Assembly: GCA_001724265.1 (NCBI GenBank)
Contig: MEDY01000149.1
Location: 54,915-74,914 of the forward strand
DNA: 20,000 bases
Origin: Rhizaria sp. SCN 62-66
Taxonomy: Eukaryota
Direction: 5' to 3'
Numbering within the stretch: the first letter of the stretch is position 1; the number at the start of each line of letters is the position of its first letter. This document shows positions 1,102 through 18,963 of the stretch, one piece after another. Under the pieces are notes generated by a model, which was given only the letters and a program-made list of their open reading frames with translations, was not told the DNA's origin and did not search any database. Both the position numbers and the translations under genes were made by a program.

Positions 1102-3151
1102 ATGATGAACAACCGGCAGAACTCTGCCTTTGAGGAGCTCATCCAAAAGGAACAGCGGTACGTCCTCCATGCCCCCACTTCTCACAGTCCCTACAGGCCC
1201 TCTCTCAGCCCAACATCGCTGCCTGCTCGCACAACACCGCCCCTCAACATAATCTTCCCTGACACACTCCCCACTTTTGCACACTGCGTTTGCCGCTCTA
1301 CACAGCACTAAGGCCCGCTGGCAGCGCACGCACGGCCGCGCAATGGCGCTCGAGTCCGGCGTGCTGCCCGATTCCGGCATGATGCTCGCCAACGACGAGT
1401 TTATGTCGGCCACCGCGGGCTCTGCCGCCGTGCCGCTGCCGCGCCCCGACCCGGCCGCCGCCGCCGCGCTTGCCTCCGCGTCGTTTGTCGGCCGCCCGCG
1501 CTTTGCCGACTCCCAGGCCATTCCCCGCAACACCGCCAGTAACAACGGCAACGGCCGTACACAGTCCCCCCGCCCAAGCGATAACAACAACGCGGCCGAC
1601 AACGGCGGCTTCGACGCCTGCGCGGACCCGTTTGCGCAAACCGTGGGCGAGTGCCCCGTGCTCTCCGACGCCGGCTTCCCCCTCGTCCGCAAGAAGGTCG
1701 TCCGCACCGTCGAAGTTCCCGTCACGCGCACGGTCAAAGTGCCCATCAAGCTCGCTCCTAGCGCCGCCAACCCGGAGCGCGCGGGCCGCGCGTTCCACGT
1801 CGTGAACGAGAGCTACACCGACTACGTTGAGCGCCCCGCCGTGCGCCACCGCGAAGTCTGGGTGAAGCGCGTCGTCCCGGAACAGTACCTGCAGCGCGTA
1901 CCCGTGACCCGCACGCGCCAGATCAAGGTACCCGTGGCTGAGGGCGCCGGGTACTCGGTCGTGCCGCCGCAGCAGGCCGACGCGTGGCGCATTGACCAGG
2001 TGCAGGAGACGAAGCTTGTCGAGGTTGAGGAGTGGGCTGATTTTGAGCTCCGGCCGGTGCCGGTCACGCGCCCCGTCCCCGTCGCAGCACGGTACGTGAT
2101 GTTATAATTGAGCGAATATCTTGCTTAGCTCGTGTATAATGACATAATAATTATGTCCAGAAACGTAATCTATAACTTATTTTGCCTGCTCTAACTCAAT
2201 AACTCATCAATGCTCGCGATATCCTCCGTTTTTTGTGTTTCCATATGCTCGCTCGCAGTGAGATCCCCATGGAGCGCGGGCCCTACACCGCCTCAAACCC
2301 GCGCCAGGTGCTCAAGATTGTCCGCGGCTCCGACCCGGCGCACGAGACCGTCCGCGAGGTCGACCAGTCCCCCGTTGTCGCCTCCGCCGTCTTCGAGCCC
2401 GCCAACAATGGCAGCGCCGCTGCTGCGAACACTCGGACCAGTGGCGCCGCGCGCGGTAGTGGCAACCCGAAGCGCAGCCAGACGCAGCGCGCTGGCGGCG
2501 TCAAGGGTTTCAGCGGCAGCCGCACGCACGCGCTCGCGGCCACAAACGGCGCCATTCACAGCTCCGACCGTACGTCTTTATCTCACGTCACTCTGTATTC
2601 CTCTGTTTTGTGGTGTAAAATGCGTCCTGAAACCTTTTTCTCTTGCTCACATGTCGTTATTGTTGTTTGTCTTCATCTTTACACTGTGTATAGTGTCCCG
2701 CCGTGCGCCCCCCGCGCCGTCTGCGGAGCAGCTCGCCGCGCAGCGCCGAGCTAACGCCGCCGTTTCCTCCCTCGGCTTCACGGGCTCGCTCGCCGCCACA
2801 CTCCCGCCCGCGCCTGGTGCCGTGCCCAGCGGCCCGCGCGTGGGGATGAATGCCGGCGTCGCTGCCTCTTGGGGGCTGCGCACCGTGCCCGTCGGCGCGG
2901 ACGGCCCGGCGGCGGCCGTGACCTCCGGCGGCGTCCGAGTCGTCGGTGTCACCCCGCTCACCGCGCCCGCCGTCGCCGGTCTGCAGGTGCGCGACGTGAT
3001 CACGCACGTCAACGCGCGCCCCACGCCGTCGCCCGAGGCGCTGGCGCGCGCGCTGGATGGGTCGGATGGCCCCGTCGCGCTGTCTGTCGTGCGCGGCGCG
3101 ATCAAGATGAAGGTCGTCGTGATGCTCTCAAATAAGAACAAGGGGTATTGA
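1102..3151 (+). CDS. 4-exon gene (1102-1157, 1306-2091, 2259-2569, 2694-3151), 536 aa; VPV-repeat (articulin/alveolin-like) region plus C-terminal PDZ-like domain
   Basis: Three GTACGT...YAG introns join ORFs 1102, 1277, 2233 and 2210 in frame (1611 nt). RTVEVPVTRTVKVPI / QRVPVTRTRQIKVPV repeats; C-terminal GVRVVGVTPLTAPAVAGLQVRDVITHVNARP is PDZ-like. Ends TGA. Confidence 0.85.
1158..1305 (+). other. Spliceosomal intron 1 of VPV/PDZ gene (148 nt)
   Basis: CG|GTACGT ... CTACACAG|C; split codon CGC restores frame; C/T-rich body. Confidence 0.85.
2092..2258 (+). other. Spliceosomal intron 2 of VPV/PDZ gene (167 nt)
   Basis: CG|GTACGT ... CTAAC (2191-2195) ... CTCGCAG|T; AT-rich, contains stops, frame restored. 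Confidence 0.88.
2570..2693 (+). other. Spliceosomal intron 3 of VPV/PDZ gene (124 nt)
   Basis: C|GTACGT ... GCTCAC ... GTATAG|TG; T-rich, frame restored into the PDZ exon. Confidence 0.82.
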
Positions 3152-5928: not shown

Positions 5929-8900
5929 TTATATAGCGTTATGGCAAAAGTACCTGTTAAGCTCCTGCGCAAAGCCGCGACTGGGATAAATGCCGGCACC
6001 TGAGCCTGCACCCGCGCCAGCTCCGATCTCCGCCTCGGCCTCTGCCACCGCGGCCATTGCGCAGTGCAGCATCGCCCGCATCACCTCTTTCGCGCCCACC
6101 CCATGCTCTTGCTCTCGCGCTTTCTCCTGATCATGCTCCGTCTCCGAATCTTGCACCCCACTAGGCTCCTGCGAGTGCAACGCGATCTGCAGCGGCGGCA
6201 GCACGGCGGGCACGCCAAACATCAGCGTCGCACCCGTTGCAGCAGCCCGGCGCGCACTCGCGTTCACAGCGCCACACTGCCGCGCGCAGAGCGCAAACCG
6301 CGGACTGCGGCCAGCCGCGCACCGCAGCACATTGCCCACAGTCACCGTAGGCACCGTGACGCCGCCAGCGCCGGGGCCATCAGTGGGCGAGGGCCGGCAG
6401 AGAGCGAGCATCACGGCGGCGGCCAGACAGGTCGACGTCTCAGCGCAATCGCTCAACAGCAGCAACGGTGCGATCTGTGCCGCAGCCGCGCTCACAGTAG
6501 CCGCGGCGGCAGCAGCAGCGGCTGCGAGGAAGCGAGGCAACGCCTTAAAGAGCGAAAGCTTCGCCGAGCGTGCAGGCGACACCGGCAACACAAGCACACG
6601 CGCAACTGCGGCAAAGCCGTCGCCACAGCGGCTCGCGGCGGTTGCCACGGCTGCACTCACGATGGAAGCGACCTGTGCGGCGGCCTCTGCGGCTGCGGCT
6701 TGCGCGGGAGCTGTCGCTGCAACAGCACTGGCAAACTCCGCGGCGTCCAGGTCTAAGGGGGTACTTACACTGGCGCCGTCGGAAGCGCAGCCAGGAAGCA
6801 CGCCCAGTGCCGAGAGCGCGCGAGCCAGCGCCAGTGCGCGTCCGCGGCCACCCGCTTGGTCCTGCTTGTCTTGCTTGCTCGTCTTGGCCTTGGTAATCTG
6901 TGCTTTGGCACTACTGTCTGTTGCATTGTTGTCCACGTCAACGGTGCAGCTGGTGTGAAGAGTAGCAAGAACTGCGGCTGCGGCAGGCGCGTCTGAGTGA
7001 CCGGTAAGAGCGCTTAGCACTGGCGCCAGAGCGCAACGCGGTAAAACCACCCCTGTGCAATCGCCATCTGTGTCCGCGTGGCTGCGAGTAACTGTAAGCA
7101 ACAGAGCAGGTGTGTCCGCAGCGTATATACCACCTTCACAGTCACAGTTAGAGTTGCTTGTGGAGGAACACTGCTTGGTGTGACTGCGGCAGAGTCCGTG
7201 CTTCTGCGCCTCCGCTGGCGACAACAGCCGTGCACGCACTACAACGCGGTCGCCGTTCTTATCACACGGGCTTTGTTGTGCAGCGACGACAACAAGCAGC
7301 GCCGCAGCGGAAGCCTGACTTGTCACAACGGTCAACGCTACGCGGCTCGCCACGTCACCAGCAGCGTCACTGGTAGCCGCAGCAGAAATAGAAACAGCAG
7401 CAGTGGCTGCGGCGGTTGCTAGAGGGGCGTAGCGTAGACCGCTGCCAGTCGCGTCTGAGAGAGTGACCGTAGGCACCCCAGCGCCAGGCGGCGGCAACAC
7501 ACTCGCATTGCCGTTAGTCGCAACTGCGCCGCGCATATACCAGTCGTCTTGTACCGGGACGGCAGTGCTTGAAGTGTGCGCGCTGCCGCCGTTCTTTGCT
7601 GCAGTAACGTTAACAACAGCGGAAGCGGTACCGTTGGCCGCAGTGGTCGCAGATGAAGCAGTGACGGCATCCGCGCCCTGTGCGCCGGCGATAACTGCGG
7701 CGATACGCGCGTCACAGTCCGCAGCACCGCGCGAACTGAGCAAAAACACACGATTAGCCCAGAAAAGCTCCGGTGTAAGTCCGCGTGCCCATGTCTCTTC
7801 GTCGTCGCCAGCGCCCTGCACGTACGTCCACTCGCGCGACACGCCCACGGTCACGTCAACCGGCGCAGCGGATGTCATTGCAGCAATAGCGCTCACACTG
7901 CGACTGCCCGTAACGCTATTGTCGTCGTTGTCGCTGTCTTCCTCAACATCATCCTCATCGTTCACGTCATCATCATCATTGCTGTCGGCTTCGTTGCCGG
8001 CTCCCAATGAACGTTCGAATACAAAGCCGCAATCGTCGTCGCCACCATCATTGCCGTTCTTAGGAACGTTGATAGCGGCAGCAGCAGAATGTTCCGGTTT
8101 TGCGCCAACGCCCATGCTCTTACTTTTGCCTTTCCCCTTGCCCTTATTAACAGCAGCTGCAGTGGCCTCCGCGCTGTCGCAGCCGTTACCCGCGCCGCCG
8201 CCGTGGTTTGCCTCCGCGTCCTCCGCTCCCGCCGCGCCGCCCGCCGCCGAAGCGTAACCGGTAAGGAATGAGTGTCCGTGCGCAGGCGCTTCGCCGACAG
8301 GCCGCGACGCAGAGTAGAGATACAGCGCGGTCGCAGTCTCCGCAGCGCCCACAGCCACCGTGTTCTGCTCAGGCGTCGTCGTAGAGTCTGTTGATGTGTC
8401 GCTGTCAACACACGCCACCGAGACAACGCCGCCGCAAGAGGTCGGCGCAAAAGGGTGTGGCTGCCGCGTCACAGACGCAGTCGCGGTGGCAGAGTCGCTT
8501 TTATCCGCAGCAGCGCCCCCAGACGCGGCTTGACTTTCCACGTGCACGGCGGCCAGGTCCTCGGCCAGCGAACCGCGGTGCAGCCACACCGGCCGCAGCG
8601 GCAGCGCGCGCAGCGACCACAGCATCGGCGCCGGGGCCGCAGTCGTGTTGTTGCCGGCGCCGCCGCCGCGGCTGTTGCTGCCGTGGTGAAAAGCGACCGC
8701 TGTGGCGGCGAGGTGTGCGAGAACTTCACCGCGCGTCGGCGGCCGCACAAGAGCGCGCGCGAGCGGCCGCAGGCGGGCGCCGCAGTGGGCTGCGAGCTCT
8801 TTGCTCAGCCGCGGCAGCGCGAGGGTAGCGATCAAGTGGCGCTCCAGCGGGGGCAGAGCGGGTGGCAGCTGCGGCTGCGTGGGCAGCGGGAACAGCGCAA

Positions 8901-10486
8901 CCGTACATGTGGCGACTGCGGCGCTCACTGTTAACGTCTCTGTTAACAGGTTCTGTGTGTTTGACACAGAACCTGTTGTGACAGTAGATGACTCAGATGC
9001 AGTTGTATCAGTAACAGCGGGCGCCTGTAAAAGCATGGGCGCCGCAGGCTCTGGACACGGAGTAGGGAATAAGTGCGTCTTCAGACTGCTGGTGCGTTCA
9101 GTTGCTCCTGTGAATGCGGCAGCAAGAGCAGTCTCGGTTTCAATCTCGGTTATGGCAGCCCATTTGCTCGCTTCGTCATCGTCCTCGGCCTCAGCCTCCG
9201 CCTCAGCCTCATCAGCATCAGCATCAGCGTCAAAGTCCGTGTTCACTGTGCTGTTCGTGCTGTTGGCTGTGTTGCGGCTCTCGCGAGCCTGAGTGCGAGT
9301 GGGAAGCAGCAGCAGCGGAAGCCCCCCGACAGCGGCCACTTGCTCACTATACCCCACGCCTGGCACTTCACATAGCCGAGCGTCACTCAATGCTCCAGGT
9401 TCACAGTCACTATTCTCCACACCTGGCGCTTCACGAAACGCAGCACCACTCACTGCGTCAGCCGCAGCCGTCGCTGGGTTACGGGCGCGTGCACGCGCGT
9501 GTGCGCGTGCGAGAGAGAGCACTTGGGGCCACTGCGCCGCCGCCCACCGCTGCACGGCGTCTCCCGCGCGCGTCAGCTCTGCGGCGACCGCCAAGTGCAG
9601 GGCGCAGAGCCACAGCGGCACGGTGCGCGTGAAGGCGTCCGGCGCGCGCTTGCCGCGCCGAGTCGAGTCGACAAGCAGCAAACCGGCAGGCAGCTGTGCA
9701 GTCGCGTTATCGTTCTTCAAGGCACTGTTGTTGATGTGATGGTTGACGTTTTCGCTCGCAAGTGTGGCCAGAGTGGCAAAGCGCTCCAGCGGCAGCTTCA
9801 CACCGCTATCGGCTTCGCAGACAGTGTCAGGCTTTTGCTGTCGCTCCTTTTGCTGTTGTTGCTGTTGTTGCTGTAATTGCTGCTGTTGTTGCTGTTGCTG
9901 CCGCTGTTGTGTCCAGCCCTTTCGGCGTGCGGCAATGCGGGCGTGCTTCAGCGCCAGCCTCACCAAGTGCAGGTTGAGGCGCGACCACGACACGGTCCAA
10001 TGGTGGCAGTGCCCGTCCGTCGACTTGAAGTAGCACGTCGCCACCGCCGCCGCAGGCGTCTGCGCAGGCGCACCGGTGCCGTGTGGAGTGGACGGAGAGG
10101 ACGGTATGGGGGGAGCGTAAGCCGCGGCGGCGACAGGATCGGCGTACCAGCGCCCGCAGCGCAGATTCGCCAGCAGCGGTGTGCCTGGGGGCAGGCGCGG
10201 CAACGCGGAGGCGTACAGCGCGGCTGCGTCGTCGGCGATCGACTTGAGGCGGTTCTGTAACGGGACAAGAAGGTTTAGGCAAGGAGTGAGTTGATAATAG
10301 TGAGCTACCGAGTGCGGTGGGTGCGGTGTGTTGCGAGCAATTCAGAGGGGTATAGGGGGTCGAATGATGGCTTACCAGAGCACCGCGCTCGCTGCGTTTA
10401 AGCTTTTTAGCGACCTTGGCCATGTTCGCAACGGAAGGTCCGGCGAACTGGCTGCGGGCCGCGGACGCGGGGGGGCGTCCCGACAT
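5929..10486 (-). CDS. RIT1: tRNA A64-2'-O-ribosylphosphate transferase (initiator tRNA phosphoribosyl transferase), 2 exons (10486-10376, 10254-5929), about 1478 aa
   Basis: Family motifs in order: LKRSERGAL|NRLKSI, LANLRCGRWY, CYFKSTDGH..W.VS.SRLNLHL, LLVDSTRRGKRAPDAFTRTVPLW, YVQGAGDDEETWARGLTPELFW, C-terminal PSRGFAQELNRYF. Ends TAA. Confidence 0.92.
9851..9909 (-). repeat. CAG/CAA polyglutamine-coding tract in RIT1
   Basis: Plus strand (TGC/TGT)n; translates QQRQQQQQQQQLQQQQQQQQ. Confidence 0.9.
10255..10375 (-). other. Spliceosomal intron of RIT1 (121 nt)
   Basis: CTG|GTAAGC ... CCCGTTACAG|AAC; phase 0; joins the conserved LKR...NRL.SI motif. Confidence 0.88.
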
Positions 10487-10954: not shown

Positions 10955-11740
10955 ATGGGCGGCGTTTTGTCCCGTCTGCTCTCCGTTTTCCACTCGAAGA
11001 AACTCGATCTCGTCCTCATCGGCCTCAGTGGCGCGTACGTTTAGATCGAGTGAACCTCTCTCGCTTTGTAATCACATCTCGCGAGCTTTCTGTTCGCTGT
11101 CCTAACATCTCTCATCGCGCAATATCGCGAGTAGTCTCCTTGCTGCGATACATTCCGCGTCTATTCTTCTGTTGTTACACATCATCTCATCTCCTTTCAC
11201 TGCTCTCTTCGCCTCCACATTCTGCTTCACTTCTCGCTGTGTTGCGTCGTTGAAATGCTCTCGCCCTCGCTCTTCAGCGGCAAGACGACGTTCGCGAACG
11301 CGCTGTCCTTCGCGCCCTCGACCTCCTCCCTGGACACAGTCCCGACCGTGGGCCTCAACGTCCAAGTCTTCCGCCGCCAGGGCGTCGTCTGCAAAGTCTG
11401 GGACATGGGTGGGCAAGCGGCCTACCGTGCCGAGTGGGCTCGCTACGCGCGCGGCTGCGGCGTCATCTGCGTGCTCGTCGACACCACGCGGCCAGAGGAC
11501 CTGCCGCAGGTCAAGCGCGAGCTTATTCAGCTGCTTGAGGACCGTGAGCTCGCCACTACGCCACTGCTCATCTTGGCCAACAAGGTCGATTTGGGGCCGC
11601 AGATCACGGAGCAGGAGCTCATCACGGGGCTCAATCTCGACTATGTGGTCGATGCGCCGTGGTTGCTTATCCCCGTGTCGGCCAAGCGCGGGGATAACAT
11701 CCCCAAGGCGCTTGAGTTCCTCATCAAACACGCCAAGTGA
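10955..11740 (+). CDS. ARF-family small GTPase, ARL8/ARL18-like, 2 exons (10955-11034, 11278-11740), 180 aa
   Basis: Spliced protein MGGVLSRLLSVFHSKKLDLVLIGLSGA|GKTT...PTVGLNV...WDMGGQAAYRAEWARYARG...ANKVD...VSAK: all G-boxes present; WDxGGQ..R..W.RY.RG is ARL8-like; Gly2 retained. Ends TGA. Confidence 0.92.
11035..11277 (+). other. Spliceosomal intron of ARL gene (243 nt)
   Basis: GC|GTACGT ... CTCTTCAG|C; splicing rebuilds the P-loop GLSGAGKT. Confidence 0.92.
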
Positions 11741-12511: not shown

Positions 12512-13117
12512 TCACTGTTCGTCGTCCTCGTCGTCCTCGTCATCATCGCTGGCGGTGGGCCGCGCCGTGGGGTCGACATAGCGCCCCGCAGCCTCCTCCG
12601 CGGCCTGGTTGCGCATATACTCGCCAATCCACGCAATAATGCGGTCACAGTTCTCCTTCAGCTAGTCCTCGGTGTCCGACTGCAGCTCCACCACAACCGA
12701 CTCGTCGTAGCTCTCCGCCGCCTCGCTCGACACCACGCACATGATCTCGCACTCCATGTTTTCTTCGCGCTTTTGGTCAGAATACCCGCGCGCAGTTAAA
12801 CGGTCGTACAAGACGGAGTTGTCGCAGCGCAGCACGACGACGAGCTGGAAGAAGCGCTCGGGGAAGAAGCCGCACGTGTGGTGATCGATCACGACGCCGC
12901 CCTCGGCAATAGGGCCCTCAAGCTCGTCCAGCACGGCGTCATCGTCGAGGAGCAGCGAGTCAAACTCGGCGTGGCGGCCATCGTACAGCCCCTTTTCAGT
13001 CGCGAGTGCCGAGACGTTGATGAACTTGAAGTTGAGCTTCTCTTTGAGGAGCTCGGCGTGCTGGGTCTTGCCGCAGCCGGGCGTGCCCGTTAGGAGAATG
13101 TTTGGCAGCTTGGGCAT
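12512..13117 (-). CDS. AK6: Adenylate kinase 6 / FAP7 / hCINAP, 201 codons including one in-frame TAG at 12662-12664
   Basis: MPKLPNILLTGTPGCGKT (P-loop), GGVVIDHH.CGFFPERFF.LVVVLR.DNSVLYDRL.ARGY, ENMECEIM, SYDESVVVELQSDTED*LKENCDRIIAWIGEY...DDDEDDEDDEQ-TGA. The ORF track stops at the TAG. Confidence 0.92.
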
Positions 13118-14373
13118 TGTTGGGACGCGCGCAGGCTGGACGGAGGGCACGCGCGGTCGCGGGAGAAGCGGAGAGCGGAACACGCAAGAAGCAAAGTGCC
13201 GTGAAGGTGTGCAGGGAGAGGAAGCAAGAGACAGGGTGACAGGGAAAGTGAGCTAAGAGTTTTTATGGGTGCGCGGTTATGTAAACAAACAAGCGCTATC
13301 AAAAAACACCGGCGGCGTATCTATATCGTTCGATTATCCGCCTCAGGGCGCGCCTCGCGAGCATGTTCTGGAGTGCACAGGTTCACACTGTAAAAGTCGC
13401 GATCGCACTACCATCGACTAGAGAGGGTTCATGACGGCTTCAGAACATATTATTACAAAATCAGAAACAATATCCCTAATGCGTAGATAAACCAAGGCCT
13501 TTGTCCCAAAGAAATGATTGAATGCGCTGCTTTGATAGTGGCAAAGTGACGCCGAGTGGACCCCTGTCCCGAAGCAGAGGTTCCGAAAAAAGAAATTGGT
13601 TTTGGAATCGTTCTGACAAAGCAAACATTTTGAAGCTCATCTATCGACTCCTGTGATTCGTCAAATGCTCTGATAGTGTTTGTTCAGATATTAATAGGTT
13701 GGTTAATATTAAATTATTCAAATATTTGCCGCGTGGCACGAAGTTTTACGTCCTATCTCGTCTTGAAGAAGGTTCCTCGGCAAGCCACTTTTGGGCTAGG
13801 GCCCTCCCCGCGCCCGACCGCCGGGACGTCTCCGGTCGGTCCCCACAGCATCTCTGACGCTTGCGACACACTTCATCTGCTGTAACTCGGTGACTCCGCA
13901 CTGTCTTCAACTCGCGTGCGCATGTCTTTGCGAATCACGCGCTGTGTGTAGTGTGCTTTGTCCTATCAGTCTACACCTCTGTCAGTTCTATCTTACTTTG
14001 CACTCTCTGCAGCAGCAGCAGACCAACATTGATCTTGATATGTTTTATGCAAGTTGCCCGCCATCACTGCGCGTTTGTTACAGCCGCGCCCGTACTTGCA
14101 CTCTTGTAACCCCATCGCCTCACGCCCCGCCCGTCATACTCCGCCGCCTTTGATTCTCTCTTGCGACGATCTTCCCTTATTCCCCAGTCTAGCTTCGCGT
14201 AACGCAGCTCTTGCTTTCTCTTTGCTGGCCTTGCTGCTGCCTCTGCACGCGCAGCACACACCAGCTGGGTTGCCCCCGCCTCAGCTCTTTTCTCAGCATC
14301 AGTCTCGACCGTCACAGTCGCAGACGCCGACGCTGTCGTTGCCGTTGACATCGTCGTCACAACCGCAGTCACC

Positions 14374-16956
14374 ATGAGCATTCTATCGACTCTGGGGCTC
14401 ACATCCTCGTCGTCATCGTCTGCATCTGCAGCGTCTAGAGCGACAAGCGGCCCAGGCCCACAGCAGCACGCACAATCCCCATCACAGCAGGCTGCTGCTG
14501 CGAGACAGACGAGTATCTTCTCATTCGGTCTCTCTAGAGCCGCGCCGAGCTCTGCCAGCGCCAATACCAACGGCAGCGGCAGTGCAGCGCCGCAACAGCC
14601 CGCGCGGCCGCAGCCCACGGGCGGCGCCGCGCCGCTTTTGGGCCCCACAGTCTCTCTAGGCCCTTACACTGGCGCGGCGAACACTTACAATTATCCTGGC
14701 GCTCAGCAGTACCAAGCCGGTGTCAATGCGCAAGGGTACAACTATGGTCCTGCATTGCCCCCTGCTGGCTCTGCATCGACGGTCGCAACAAGCTCTCATA
14801 GCTCTAGCTCCAGCTCTAGTTCCAGTGGTAAAGTTAACAAGCACAAAAACAGCAAGACCTCTGCTGCCCACGGCGCCGGCGCCGCCGCCGCGGGAGCCGC
14901 CTCTGATGCCGCCGTGCCCGCGTCGCCCCCACCGCCGCCGCCGCCGCCGCTGTCGATCAAGCTTGCTGGCCGCTGGGTGCGTTTCACGCTTGATGGCGAG
15001 ACCGTCGCGCGCTCTCAGCTCCCCGTGGCGCCGTCCCCGCGTGCTCACTATGACTGGGCGCTCTCCAAGCACCGTGACGACCAGGAGGCCTCCCCGGCCA
15101 CCGCGCGCGCGGCCGCCGTGCTTGCGGGCGAGGCGTCCAAGGGCCGCAGCGTGATCGTCAAAGTGATTGACGCGAACAAGTTCCGCACACGCGTCGCACC
15201 TGAGGCGCTGTGTATCAACGCCGCCACGCGCCGGATGGAAGTCACCGCGGGGTTCTTCTGGCGTGTGTTTGACGAGTTCACCGACTCGTCCTGGCACTGC
15301 TGGGCTTGTGTCTGCGCCTCGGACCCCCCGCTCACAGCGCTGCCGCCGCTCCCGGCGCCTCTGAACCCCGCCAACGGTGCCAACAGCGCGTCCTCTCTGT
15401 CAGCAACCGACGGCGACAGCAGTGCGCCCGCCGCCGCGGAGCTGCCCGAGGCCGTGCCGGTGTTTGTCGACGGCGCGCTGACGGCCGCAGAGGCCGCGGC
15501 CGTGGCTGCGGGCGGGTGGGCTGACGCTGCGACCGTCGTCCGCGACGCGACGGGCCGCGCGCTTGACCACTCGCTGCGGGGACAAGTGCTCAGTTCCCCG
15601 ACAGCTATCGCAGAGGAGGACAGGATCGTTTCGCCGGGCCCGCCTGTATCGCCCGCACCGCCGCCCTCTGCTGCCACCGCTGCGGCCACTGCAGCCACTG
15701 CTGTTGGGGGTAAGCCTTTCCCGCCGCCGCCGAGTCACAGTCTAAACCAGAGCCTGAGTCAGAGTCAAAGCTCTGCGACGGCTGCGACGACTGTACCGAC
15801 GACTACGACAGTGAATGGCGTGACCACAGTCGTTGCTGCGCCGCCGCGCGCGTCGCCGCTGTCTTTTTTCGGTCCCGTGCGCCCTTCTACGCTCGCGACC
15901 CTGCCCCCCGGTGCCTTCCCGGTGCCTCTGGTCGATTCCCCCGCCTTCTCACTAGGGCCGCATGACCACGTGTGCGGACTCGTGGTTCTCCAGGCCTTTG
16001 TGCACGACTCGACGTATTTCCGCTGGGGCGCGCCGATCGACGGCAACGTCGCCCCGCCCGACCCCGTCTCGGGCGCCTTCTCCCAAGTCGCCGAGATATC
16101 AGTTTTCTGCGCCAAGGCCTGTGGCACTCGCTTGCTCGACGCAGCCATCGCGCATGCCGCCGCGCACACGGATTACCGCTTCCTCGTTGCCGCCGCGACA
16201 GCGAGCGCCGTGCCGTGGTATCTTTCGCGCGGATTCAAGCCCGTCGGGGCGTACCGCCAGGAGCCGCCGCGCGGGCCGCGCGCCGCCGCGGTAGGCGAGG
16301 AGATCCGCCTCACTCAGCCGCATCTCTACCGGCACCGTATCCCTGACGCCGTGTTGGACGCCGCGCGCGACGAACCTGCACATATGGTGTACGTTGCCGT
16401 CCCCGCGCTGCGCGAGGGCGAGCGCGCGCCGACCGACTGGGCGACGGCGGCCGCTGCGCGCAAAGCCAAGGCCGCTGCGGCTGCGGCTGCGTACGGCGCG
16501 GGCGCGGGCAACGGCACTGGCGCTGGCGAGGGGGACGGGGACGGGGACGGCGCGGAGGGCAACGGGGAGGACGCGGGGCGCGGCGGGCGCGGCAGGGGCC
16601 GCGGGCGTGGGCGCGGGCGCGGACGCGGGCGCGGCAGGGGGCGCGGCGGGCGCGGCGCCTATTCAGCTTCTGCTTCTACTGCGACGGCGGCTGTGCCGGG
16701 GCCTGGTGGCCAGCAGGTCGCGGCGGGTGTGCGTGCTGGTGCGGCTGCGGTGGCTGCGAGCGCGTCGGGTTACCCCTCGTACGCCTCGTACTCGTACAAT
16801 AGCAATGCCACTGGTAGCGGCAGCAACAACAGCAATGCGAGCTACACTGCTGGAGGTGCTGCCGCGGCGGCCACGGCGCCGACGGTGGGCCAGAGTGCGA
16901 ATGAGGGCGAGGCTGCGGGTAAGCAGCAGTCTGGCCAAGATTGCGTTGTCATGTGA
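14374..16956 (+). CDS. 860-aa protein with GNAT-like acetyltransferase region, low-complexity linkers, RG repeat and C-terminal CaaX (CVVM)
   Basis: Long ORF with GC3 bias. EISVFCAKACGTRLLDAAIAHA...YRFLVAAATASAVPWYLSRGFKPVG resembles GNAT motifs A/B; ends ...QDCVVM-TGA. Confidence 0.75.
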   Translation: MSILSTLGLTSSSSSSASAASRATSGPGPQQHAQSPSQQAAAARQTSIFSFGLSRAAPSSASANTNGSGSAAPQQPARPQPTGGAAPLLGPTVSLGPYTGAANTYNYPGAQQYQAGVNAQGYNYGPALPPAGSASTVATSSHSSSSSSSSSGKVNKHKNSKTSAAHGAGAAAAGAASDAAVPASPPPPPPPPLSIKLAGRWVRFTLDGETVARSQLPVAPSPRAHYDWALSKHRDDQEASPATARAAAVLAGEASKGRSVIVKVIDANKFRTRVAPEALCINAATRRMEVTAGFFWRVFDEFTDSSWHCWACVCASDPPLTALPPLPAPLNPANGANSASSLSATDGDSSAPAAAELPEAVPVFVDGALTAAEAAAVAAGGWADAATVVRDATGRALDHSLRGQVLSSPTAIAEEDRIVSPGPPVSPAPPPSAATAAATAATAVGGKPFPPPPSHSLNQSLSQSQSSATAATTVPTTTTVNGVTTVVAAPPRASPLSFFGPVRPSTLATLPPGAFPVPLVDSPAFSLGPHDHVCGLVVLQAFVHDSTYFRWGAPIDGNVAPPDPVSGAFSQVAEISVFCAKACGTRLLDAAIAHAAAHTDYRFLVAAATASAVPWYLSRGFKPVGAYRQEPPRGPRAAAVGEEIRLTQPHLYRHRIPDAVLDAARDEPAHMVYVAVPALREGERAPTDWATAAAARKAKAAAAAAAYGAGAGNGTGAGEGDGDGDGAEGNGEDAGRGGRGRGRGRGRGRGRGRGRGRGGRGAYSASASTATAAVPGPGGQQVAAGVRAGAAAVAASASGYPSYASYSYNSNATGSGSNNSNASYTAGGAAAAATAPTVGQSANEGEAAGKQQSGQDCVVM
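16576..16656 (+). repeat. Gly-Arg dipeptide repeat (RG/RGG box) coding tract
   Basis: GGGCGC-like hexamer repeats translating GRGGRGRGRGRGRGRGRGRGRGRGGRG. Confidence 0.9.
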
Positions 16957-17514: not shown

Positions 17515-18963
17515 ATGGCGACTAAGCGTCCTTTGGCCCCACCCAAGACGACCGACGTGATTGAGTCGCACACAGCTTCGTGGTCCGAGGAGAAGCGCGC
17601 GCGCATGGCGGCATACATCGAGACGCAGCGCCTCGACTATGAGCCTCTGATCAACGACCGTGACCACGCGATCCTGTCCCTTGGCAAGGGCGACATGTTT
17701 GCCTCGATCCGCCGCGGCCAGGACGTCCGCGTGCGCAGCACCCGCGCTAAGGTTGATGCTATGATTGGCCAGCCTTACCACGCCACGTTCGCGGTCGACC
17801 GCGGCACTCTGTCGCGCCGTGAGGGCGGACCGATCAAGGCGACCGCACTGTTTGATCACTTGGAAGACAAGGACATCGACACGACCTTCATGCCCACCGC
17901 CAACAACTCCGAACTGTTCGACAACCGGTCCAACCAGACGATGACACAGGAGGACATCGCCAAGCTTAAGGCCGCGGGCGCGACGGGCGACGAGATCATC
18001 CGCGCCGTCGCCGCGGCGTCTAAGACGTTTGAGGGCAAGACAGAGTACTCGCAGGAGAAGTGGCTCCGTAAGAAGCACGCCAAGTACTCGACCGACATGC
18101 AGGTGTTGGCGCCGACCCCGCAGAACATCATCGCCGCGCTGCTGGAGCGCGAGCCGCGCAAGATCCTCTCTCTGCGCGACGACACCCTCGCGCAGCTTCT
18201 CTCCTCCGCCAACGTTGCCGCGGGCTCCGTCACGCTTGTCGTCGACGGCGCGTCCGGTCTCGTCACCGGCGCCGCTGCTCTGCGCCAGGGCGGCCAGGGC
18301 GCGATTATCTCGCTCCACGTCGCGCCCGTCCCGTCGCTGCCACTGATGAACGAGATGAACCTCTCGCCCGACGTCGCCGCTGCCGTCTTCACGCTGCCGG
18401 CCTACCTCCTGGGTCAAATCACGCCCGTCAACCGCGGGACGGTGGGTGCGCCGTTCCGCGCTGACCCCACCGTGCCTGAGCTGCCGACTCTCGAGGCGGA
18501 CGAGCTCGCCGCGATCCAGACGGAGCGCCAGGCGACCCACGCCGCGCTCGTGGCGGCCGCGGCGGCCACGGCGGCCGAGACCGGCGCCAAGCCCGAGCGC
18601 GCGGTGTACACTGGCCCGCGCGGCGACTCGCAACAGCGCCTCGCTCAGCGCCGCGCCGCGACTGAGCTGCGCCGCGGTGCGCATTCGCTCATCGTGGCGA
18701 CGTACCACTCCCCGCTTGAGACGACGCTGCCGCTGCTGCCGTACCTGCGTCCGTCGTCGCCCATCGTCGTGTACTGCCCGTTCGTTGAGCCCCTGGCGCG
18801 GCTGCAGAGCCATCTGCTGGCGACGCGCGCCGCTGTGGACGTGCAGGTGACCGAGACGTGGTATCGGCCGCTGCAGGTGCTGCCCAACCGTACGCATCCG
18901 CATATGAGCATGAACGCGACTGGCGGGTATCTGCTGCACGCTACCACCGTTGCGCTTGACTGA
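17515..18963 (+). CDS. TRM6: tRNA (adenine58-N1)-methyltransferase non-catalytic subunit TRM6/GCD10, 482 aa, intronless CDS
   Basis: Motifs NQTMTQEDIAKLK..G.TGDEII...SKTFEGKTEYSQEKW..KK..KY, REPRKILSLRDDTLAQLLSSANV, PSSPIVVY..F.EPL, ETWYRPLQVLPNRTHPHM.M...GGYLL. Ends TGA. Confidence 0.95.
   Translation: MATKRPLAPPKTTDVIESHTASWSEEKRARMAAYIETQRLDYEPLINDRDHAILSLGKGDMFASIRRGQDVRVRSTRAKVDAMIGQPYHATFAVDRGTLSRREGGPIKATALFDHLEDKDIDTTFMPTANNSELFDNRSNQTMTQEDIAKLKAAGATGDEIIRAVAAASKTFEGKTEYSQEKWLRKKHAKYSTDMQVLAPTPQNIIAALLEREPRKILSLRDDTLAQLLSSANVAAGSVTLVVDGASGLVTGAAALRQGGQGAIISLHVAPVPSLPLMNEMNLSPDVAAAVFTLPAYLLGQITPVNRGTVGAPFRADPTVPELPTLEADELAAIQTERQATHAALVAAAAATAAETGAKPERAVYTGPRGDSQQRLAQRRAATELRRGAHSLIVATYHSPLETTLPLLPYLRPSSPIVVYCPFVEPLARLQSHLLATRAAVDVQVTETWYRPLQVLPNRTHPHMSMNATGGYLLHATTVALD

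Follow-up and report, generated by a model that had tools for sequence, protein, structure and literature searches.

A nuclear genetic code that probably reads UAG as glutamate while retaining UAA and UGA as stops

The window analysed here is a 20,000-nucleotide stretch (G000:C149:54915-74914) of a eukaryotic assembly of 34.9 Mb in 714 contigs. The gene context is ordinary housekeeping. Pfam identifies a 1443-aa Rit1-domain protein (5929-10260, minus strand), an ARF-family GTPase (11135-11740, plus strand) and Gcd10/TRM6 (17515-18963, plus strand), while an 886-aa low-complexity protein (14296-16956, plus strand) has no Pfam match. That two tRNA-modifying genes lie in this window is probably chance. 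A further 254-aa protein with VxVP-rich repeats (1343-2107, plus strand) also has no Pfam match and a best Atlas score of 0.77; we take it to be articulin- or epiplastin-like.

Among these genes lies AK6/FAP7 (hCINAP; 12512..13117, minus strand), an intronless, single-copy gene whose coding sequence starts with the ATG at 13117 and comprises 201 codons plus TGA. Its identity follows from Pfam (PF13238, E 1.4e-33) and from human AK6 structures, which match residues 4-170 (E 1.6e-51). Codon 152 is an in-frame TAG (12662..12664, minus), most likely read as Glu, the residue that human AK6 carries in this homologue column. Past it, 49 sense codons (12515..12661, minus) encode a helix and then an acidic tail before the true stop, a TGA (12512..12514, minus). 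An earlier note on this DNA had described this arrangement and called its composition coding-like, and both descriptions hold. GC3 is 0.85 in codons 1-151, 0.80 in codons 153-201 and 0.51 in the 49 triplets past the TGA; the codon-usage score is 0.40, 0.34 and -0.81 over the same three segments. Codon 152 is the sole internal stop triplet among 3843 codons in eight window ORFs, matching the note's single in-frame TAG in roughly 4000 codons. The note was also right that no window gene ends in TAG, but the other ORF ends number seven (four TGA, three TAA) and not six (four and two).

A stop at the TAG would, judging from homologues and a structural model, delete a conserved C-terminal helix. At least 11 residues follow the site in 45 of 48 homologues, and N156 (41/48), R159 (35/48) and W163 (41/48) are conserved. 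AlphaFold2 models codons 150-176 (12590..12670, minus) as one helix, with pLDDT above 90 to about residue 180, in keeping with the helix that the earlier note had described. Nor does splicing plausibly remove the TAG, as the note had also argued: 13 in-frame GT..AG intervals no longer than 75 nt span it, all of them starting at codons 128-143, and therefore each deletes L145 (42/48) and S147 (43/48). An intact AK6 paralogue, which the note had considered as evidence against recoding, was not found in a search of the genome. A truncated 151-aa AK6 prediction is already on record, from 6 contigs.

The same triplet recurs in independent data. We compared the window with contigs of sequencing runs X2-X5, leaving out the small-share runs X6-X9; X2 and X3 have near-identical tables and are probably one data set filed twice. 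The X2/X3 contig spans 11164-15600 with no differences and contains the TAG. Run X4, from another study, yielded a contig over 10500-12847 with three differences, none at the TAG, and its long contigs carry four SNPs, none at the AK6 TAG. From X5, a polyA RNA library, came a 201-base contig (12549-12749) that carries the TAG with no differences and no gaps. Since an RNA library may contain some DNA and rare variants are lost from contigs, these contigs speak to the presence of the TAG only, not to homozygosity or transcription. The earlier note had proposed a read check at 12664 and rated sequence error, a nonsense allele and leaky readthrough as equally live. Run on contigs, that check finds the TAG in two independent DNA studies and a polyA RNA contig, which excludes sequence error. 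It is also most improbable that the TAG is a nonsense allele, AK6 being single-copy and the sole eRF1 gene likewise carrying an in-frame TAG, and leaky readthrough sits poorly with many sites that share no +4 base and with a dedicated CUA tRNA.

AK6 is one of many genes with such a codon. In about 1 Mb of the 34.9 Mb examined directly, and with intron acceptors removed, at least 14 further genes contain in-frame TAGs, within conserved domains: eRF1, five kinases, UBE2J1, an ASCC3/Brr2-like helicase, a Prp5/DDX46-like helicase, a ubiquitin-like domain, an Argonaute (two sites), two UCH proteases and one Ras-family gene. The codon is very rare. It makes up 18 of 113,382 coding-context codons (0.016%, or 0.16 per 1000), compared with 4786 GAG, 623 GAA, 3213 CAG and 336 CAA, and thus about 0.3% of Glu-type codons; GAA itself supplies only 11% of Glu codons. 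TAGs fall mostly at variable surface positions. The base following AK6's TAG is C, and across 19 TAG sites the +4 base is C in eight, G in five, A in four and T in two, with no common context. Programmed stop-codon readthrough does not describe this pattern, in which many genes are involved, no context is shared and TAG is depleted as a terminator.

Several apparent in-frame TAGs dissolved into introns. Eleven of 142 kinase matches carried a TAG, five as internal sense codons, four as intron acceptors and two within introns, and the TAA and TGA triplets within two kinase matches that we checked lay behind GT donors. Family scans found one TAG in 43 DEAD matches, one in 54 kinesin matches and two TAG-bearing matches among 54 for Ras; the DEAD TAG, the kinesin TAG and two of three Ras TAGs all proved to be intron acceptors. 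Scans of the dynein, ABC, AAA and histone families gave no in-frame TAG. SNF2 and UCH matches with mixed stops were taken as introns, and one TAG-only SNF2 match was left out. A codon-pattern scan returned 118 matches; among the 100 listed, 38 were chosen by eye and examined together with two UCH matches, and 13 of these 40 pass a coding test, 10 of them matching the pattern in frame. A second codon pattern gave five matches, one clearly in frame. One candidate, a GTPase N-K-x-D motif with TAG at the Lys position, turned out to be the tail of a P2X-receptor-like protein. As a separate observation, loci L290 (G000:C150) and L308 (G000:C125) hold a P2X-receptor-like channel and the Argonaute with two in-frame TAGs.

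Gene ends present the complementary picture. Across about 0.9 Mb of the genome's own loci, we tested stop triplets lying behind 50 clean, high-scoring codons for continued coding. Coding ends at TAA in 52 of 52 cases and at TGA in 54 of 54, some of which ends will be intronic. Of 18 TAG cases, 12 continue by the automatic rule and closer reading adds two, one in a helicase Q-motif that precedes an intron and the other in L075; a further two are intronic or in the wrong frame, and the last two are ambiguous. No terminal TAG is therefore certain, and at most two of 108 ends qualify, both with a TAA or TGA 0-3 codons behind. In these two, L113:1100-1105 (plus) and L076 (minus), TAG is followed at once by TAA or, three codons on, by TGA, and is either a last-residue Glu or a remnant TAG stop. 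TAG accounts for 167 of 810 stop triplets (21%) in 3' flanks; at that rate two or fewer TAG ends in 108 has a binomial P of 6e-9, and at a rate of 10% a P of 1e-3. The earlier note had held that common use of TAG as a terminator elsewhere would speak against recoding, and the counts run the other way. UAA and UGA are retained as terminators and are not sense codons.

A search for a tRNA-CUA, another of the note's proposals, found one gene, and its body resembles tRNA-Glu. This 73-base gene lies at G000:C84:76008-76080 (ARAGORN anticodon CUA; Rfam RF00005, 58 bits) and is the only anticodon-loop match for CUA in a pattern scan of the genome, nuclear and single-copy. A T-run follows it, and its contig of 85,858 bases has similar GC and GC-rich eukaryotic genes; we take its flanking genes to be formin-like and GINS-like. 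Scanning for CUA, UUA, CCA and UCA loops gave 11 matches, among which the real tRNAs were one CUA, two Trp, two Gly and two Pro; no UUA or UCA tRNA was among them, in a scan that intron-bearing or long-arm genes may escape. The Rfam tRNA scan scored 63 of 506 candidates. Gene counts are eight for Glu(CUC), one for Glu(UUC) and one for CUA. The covariance model gives the CUA tRNA a cloverleaf and minimum-energy folding did not (z -1.5), a common outcome for unmodified tRNAs.

Among the tRNAs recovered from this genome, the CUA tRNA is closest to Glu(CUC), with 47 of 73 positions identical, followed by Glu(UUC) and His (40 each), Asp and Lys (39 each) and two tRNA-Gln (33 and 29). The acceptor pairs U1-A72, C2-G71, C3-G70, C4-G69 and A5-U68 are common to it and both tRNA-Glu, and unlike those of tRNA-Asp and tRNA-Lys; its T-stem is that of Glu(CUC). 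A single base change separates the anticodon from CUC, and two separate it from GUC. At position 38 the gene carries A in place of the C found in both tRNA-Glu, which yields A36-A37-A38, the motif for i6A37. We rejected tRNA-Pyl as an identity: the ARAGORN label 'Pyl' only follows the anticodon, and an ordinary tRNA model fits all 71 positions. The gene has a 5-bp anticodon stem and a 4-nt variable loop, features by which we assume it can be set apart from tRNA-Pyl.

The decoded residue can be predicted from the proteins as well. Four orthologue columns differ greatly in what they reveal. The eRF1 column at human Glu107 holds E in 106, D in 10 and V in 1 of 117 homologues, and Q in none; being well conserved, it is the only site that separates Glu from Gln sharply. 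At the AK6 site the 48 homologues have D 17, E 16, Q 8, other residues 5 and gaps 2, in line with the polar or acidic position (D, E or Q) given in the earlier note. UBE2J1 has D 30, S 7, E 7 and Q 1 of 59, and the ASCC3/Brr2 column is variable and uninformative (E 24, N 24, D 20 and Q 9 of 150). Pooled log-odds over the four columns are E 7.6, D 7.3, Q -0.9, S -2.5, K -5.8 and L -9.1. The two closest AK6 relatives have Q at the site and the closest eRF1 relative has V. Pfam bit sums over seven sites, with eight residues tried, are E 832.4, Q 830.5, K 830.1, D 828.1, S 825.5, Y 819.5, L 817.3 and W 814.9. They exclude Leu, Tyr and Trp and barely separate E, Q and K, the margin of E over Q being 1.9 bits.

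A neighbour-residue model trained on the organism's own genome gave the 18 TAG sites scores of D 16.5, Y 11.0, E 10.3 and Q -4.0; true GAA sets, too, came out as D more frequently than as E. Its E minus Q difference of +14.3 bits is reached by 0.2-0.5% of true-Gln sets and by 86% of GAG sets. For a second set of 10 pattern-scan sites with matched controls, the corresponding figures are 52% of Glu sets and 1.2% of Gln sets, with Lys, Leu and Asp sets also compatible by this test. Three sites lean toward Gln: the Prp5/DDX46-like site, whose counterpart is H in DDX46 and Q in DDX5; the ubiquitin-like site, aligned with a Q in the ubiquitin that this genome encodes; and a TAG within a Gln-rich run. 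Overall, the protein evidence points to an acidic residue and the tRNA to Glu, and the two agree at eRF1 107. The earlier note's proposal of Gln or Glu is thereby supported, and narrowed to Glu by the tRNA and by this eRF1 position.

That TAG lies in exon 2 of eRF1, an N-domain exon (L033:1594-1596, G000:C63, minus strand), in the genome's one eRF1-type match, where introns measure about 130-280 nt. A check for eRF1 substitutions, also raised in the note, turned up departures from the common residue at 32, 57 and 58 in human numbering: T32S and G57S, each seen in 0 of 117 homologues, and T58K, seen in 1 of 117. L126M and K130Q occur as well. E55, NIKS, S70, Y125, C127, N129 and F131 are intact. 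The one other bearer of T58K is the nearest eRF1 relative, the JGI protein P0058, which is 84% identical, retains T32 and G57, and carries Val at 107. Yeast does not survive T32A (PMC4381064), and T32G in Iotanema spirale reportedly disrupts a hydrogen bond with the UAG guanine (PMC9161772). In human eRF1, by contrast, the T32S protein is described as releasing at all three stops largely as before in vitro, and the residues given as UAG determinants are E55, Y125 and N129 (PMC3632111). We found no report on T58K in the literature, and an eRF1 screen preprint (PMC12440015) yielded no mention of the residues of interest. With T32S largely neutral in the human protein and E55, Y125 and N129 intact, a causal role of these changes can only be inferred.

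Taken together, the in-frame codons, the tRNA gene and the gene ends make it probable that this nuclear code reads UAG as Glu and UAA and UGA as stops, the residue being a prediction from sequence. Rare in-frame TAGs lie in many genes, AK6 and eRF1 included, and frames end at TAA or TGA and not clearly at TAG. The AK6 TAG would then be a rare synonymous Glu codon and the AK6 protein 201 residues long. The candidate decoder is the single nuclear CUA tRNA with its tRNA-Glu-like body, which may have arisen from a duplicate of tRNA-Glu(CUC) through C36->A and would be charged by GluRS, as in other lineages with UAG as Glu. A CUA anticodon should be unable to pair with UAA, so that UAA would stay a stop; the Tetrahymena CUA tRNA does not wobble onto UAA, as cited in PMC5304391 and PMC11687900. 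An eRF1 with unusual residues 32, 57 and 58 may, finally, compete poorly at UAG.

Of the alternatives, the one that survives best, and that we still regard as unlikely, is an ambiguous intermediate in which the CUA tRNA-Glu competes with eRF1 for UAG, producing a mixture of full-length and truncated protein and perhaps leaving a few UAG-ended genes. Low usage fits this (18 TAG beside 4786 GAG and 623 GAA, or about 0.3% of Glu-type codons, mostly at variable surface positions), but would equally be expected if the change were recent and the genome GC-rich, with T/A-rich codons avoided. The ratio of one CUA gene to eight for Glu(CUC), the intact E55, Y125 and N129 of eRF1 and the two possible terminal TAGs in L113 and L076, with TAA or TGA within 0-3 codons, are likewise compatible with competition. 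TAG has nearly gone as a terminator, however, at no more than 2 of 108 ends, and truncation of the single-copy AK6 and eRF1 should be costly.

UAG could instead mean Gln, as in Iotanema, if GlnRS charged the CUA tRNA, or stand for a mixture of Glu and Gln, a reading we hold to be very unlikely. Amber suppressors derived from bacterial tRNA-Glu do insert some Gln, Q occurs in 8 of 48 AK6 homologues, the two nearest among them, three sites lean toward Gln, and the Pfam margin is small. Against these stand Q in 0 of 117 homologues at eRF1 107 and in 1 of 59 at UBE2J1, the two neighbour tests, which place the TAG sites outside the Gln distribution, and a CUA tRNA whose lowest identities are those to the two tRNA-Gln (33 and 29 of 73). 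Asp, Lys or some other polar residue is more doubtful still: Asp leads the AK6 and UBE2J1 columns and the neighbour model, yet at eRF1 107 E is found in 106 of 117 homologues and D in only 10; Lys trails Glu by only 2.3 bits in the Pfam sums, yet scores -5.8 in the pooled columns. The CUA tRNA, moreover, has the acceptor stem of tRNA-Glu and not that of tRNA-Asp or tRNA-Lys, and its anticodon is nearer to CUC than to GUC. The standard code, with the AK6 TAG an error, nonsense allele or leaky codon and the CUA tRNA a pseudogene or mitochondrion-only, deserves the least credence and is largely refuted by AK6 contigs, homologue columns and gene-end counts: it can appeal to the +4 C at AK6, to apparent TAGs that proved intron acceptors and to the precedent of Balanophora, whose nuclear tRNA-Trp(CUA) is proposed to serve the plastid (bioRxiv 10.64898/2026.01.09.698701), but it has to contend with the same TAG in independent DNA and RNA contigs, no AK6 paralogue, at least 14 other internal-TAG genes without a common context, and the near absence of TAG terminators.

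UAG as Glu beside two working stops can be compared with codes already described. Nuclear recoding of UAG only is reported for Iotanema spirale (Gln), the rhizarian exLh (Leu), Scotinosphaera (Ser), phyllopharyngean ciliates (Leu, Gln) and Protocruzia tuzeti (Gln), with a CUA tRNA found in two of the ciliate genomes and predicted in the other UAG-only cases (PMC5304391, PMC11687900). Iotanema and a rhizarian had been cited in the earlier note, correctly according to PMC5304391, but these precedents do not supply the residue here: Gln, Ser and Leu appear not to fit, with pooled scores of -0.9, -2.5 and -9.1 against 7.6 for Glu. The code proposed here shares with the UAG-only codes a sense UAG, UAA and UGA stops and a CUA tRNA as candidate decoder. 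It differs in specifying Glu instead of Leu, Gln or Ser, in using UAG at 0.16 per 1000 codons, in its GC-rich genome and in eRF1, where T32 is Gly in Iotanema and Ser here (PMC9161772). As reconstructed, it is structurally like Iotanema-type codes and a member of no named variant.

Other lineages assign UAG to Glu together with UAA. The peritrich ciliate code, NCBI table 30, reads both as Glu; UAG as Glu is common to that code and the one proposed here, but in our organism UAA terminates in 52 of 52 cases and no UUA tRNA was found in the loop scan. Oligohymenophorea sp. PL0344 reads UAA as Lys and UAG as Glu, with UGA as its only stop and 10 CUA genes (PMC10553269). Its CUA tRNAs are nearest to tRNA-Glu, at 69-93% identity compared with 64% here, but its code is described as deriving from one with UAR as Gln, whereas our organism has one CUA gene and two working stops. 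In Blastocrithidia spp., UAR encodes Glu and UGA Trp, with UAA also serving as stop (PMC12153298), and a tRNA-Glu(CUA) arose from a tRNA-Glu copy, much as we propose. No in-frame UAA or UGA sense codons of the Blastocrithidia kind were found in the tested loci, where all 54 TGA and 52 TAA end coding. Blastocrithidia avoids recoded codons in abundant proteins, where our organism rarely places TAG at conserved sites; UAG there reaches 1.4-1.7% of codons against 0.016% here; and AT pressure is invoked for its code, where here coding DNA is GC-rich and eRF1 S70 unchanged.

UAG as Glu with UAA and UGA stops was not found in a full-text literature search covering the main text of mostly non-subscription papers, and it seems undescribed. 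Few nuclear codes treat UAG and UAA differently, and the reports consulted give Leu, Gln or Ser for UAG alone and Glu only where UAA is recoded too. If true, this would be a new code variant that comes with a candidate tRNA and a candidate eRF1, both lacking for Iotanema and exLh, which are known from transcriptomes only. It would mean that a single-base change in a tRNA-Glu anticodon can capture UAG from the standard code without AT pressure. The very low UAG usage makes the organism a test case for codon capture versus ambiguous-intermediate models. There is a practical side as well: standard-code gene calling truncates such proteins, as in the 151-aa AK6, and rare UAGs are easily missed in metagenome surveys.

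A more specific scenario, which we advance tentatively as possible, has a GC-rich flagellate outside the ciliates turning UAG, and no other stop, directly into a Glu codon, and doing so recently enough that the process is seen close to its beginning. A single new tRNA-Glu(CUA), UAG at about 0.3% of Glu codons and T32S in the GTS loop would suit it, as would G57S and T58K, beside E55, as candidate eRF1 changes. The UAG within the eRF1 gene itself makes feedback on termination possible: each time eRF1 won the competition its own output would be cut, which could lock the code in place. A relative with T58K but without T32S and G57S, whose eRF1 is 84% identical, would order the steps.

The organism occurs in runs labelled bioreactor, wastewater or activated sludge. 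About 11 dynein heavy-chain loci (13 matches) indicate a flagellate, and GC-rich genes, introns above 100 nt and TAA stops, set against the traits for which ciliates are known, speak against a peritrich. Named neighbours are distant and scattered (Cantina, Luapelamoeba, Amoebidium, Paradermamoeba, Diphylleia), and trees join the query only to environmental proteins. A metagenome scan for relatives' DNA with at least 80 loci gave at most 52% identity among the matches listed, none from a close clade.

The clues to the lineage disagree, and one of them comes from an rDNA contig that may not belong to this organism's bin. The SSU rDNA (L146:1501-5945; G000:C706:4459-8903) is AT-rich (41% GC) and very divergent, with four large insertions that we take to be group I introns, the first with an ORF bearing what looks to us like a His-Cys-box motif. 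Helix 17 has 21 bases against 4 in the model and folds as an extra hairpin, which in our view recalls helix 17-1 of Tetramitia. Ubiquitin genes, in turn, start Met-Ser-Met, recalling the rhizarian one-residue ubiquitin insertion (PMC6133090), and no polyubiquitin array occurs in 10 ubiquitin loci. Loci L167, L168, L170, L171 and L174 hold single-unit ubiquitin genes whose products have two extra residues at the N-terminus and a tail of three at the C-terminus.
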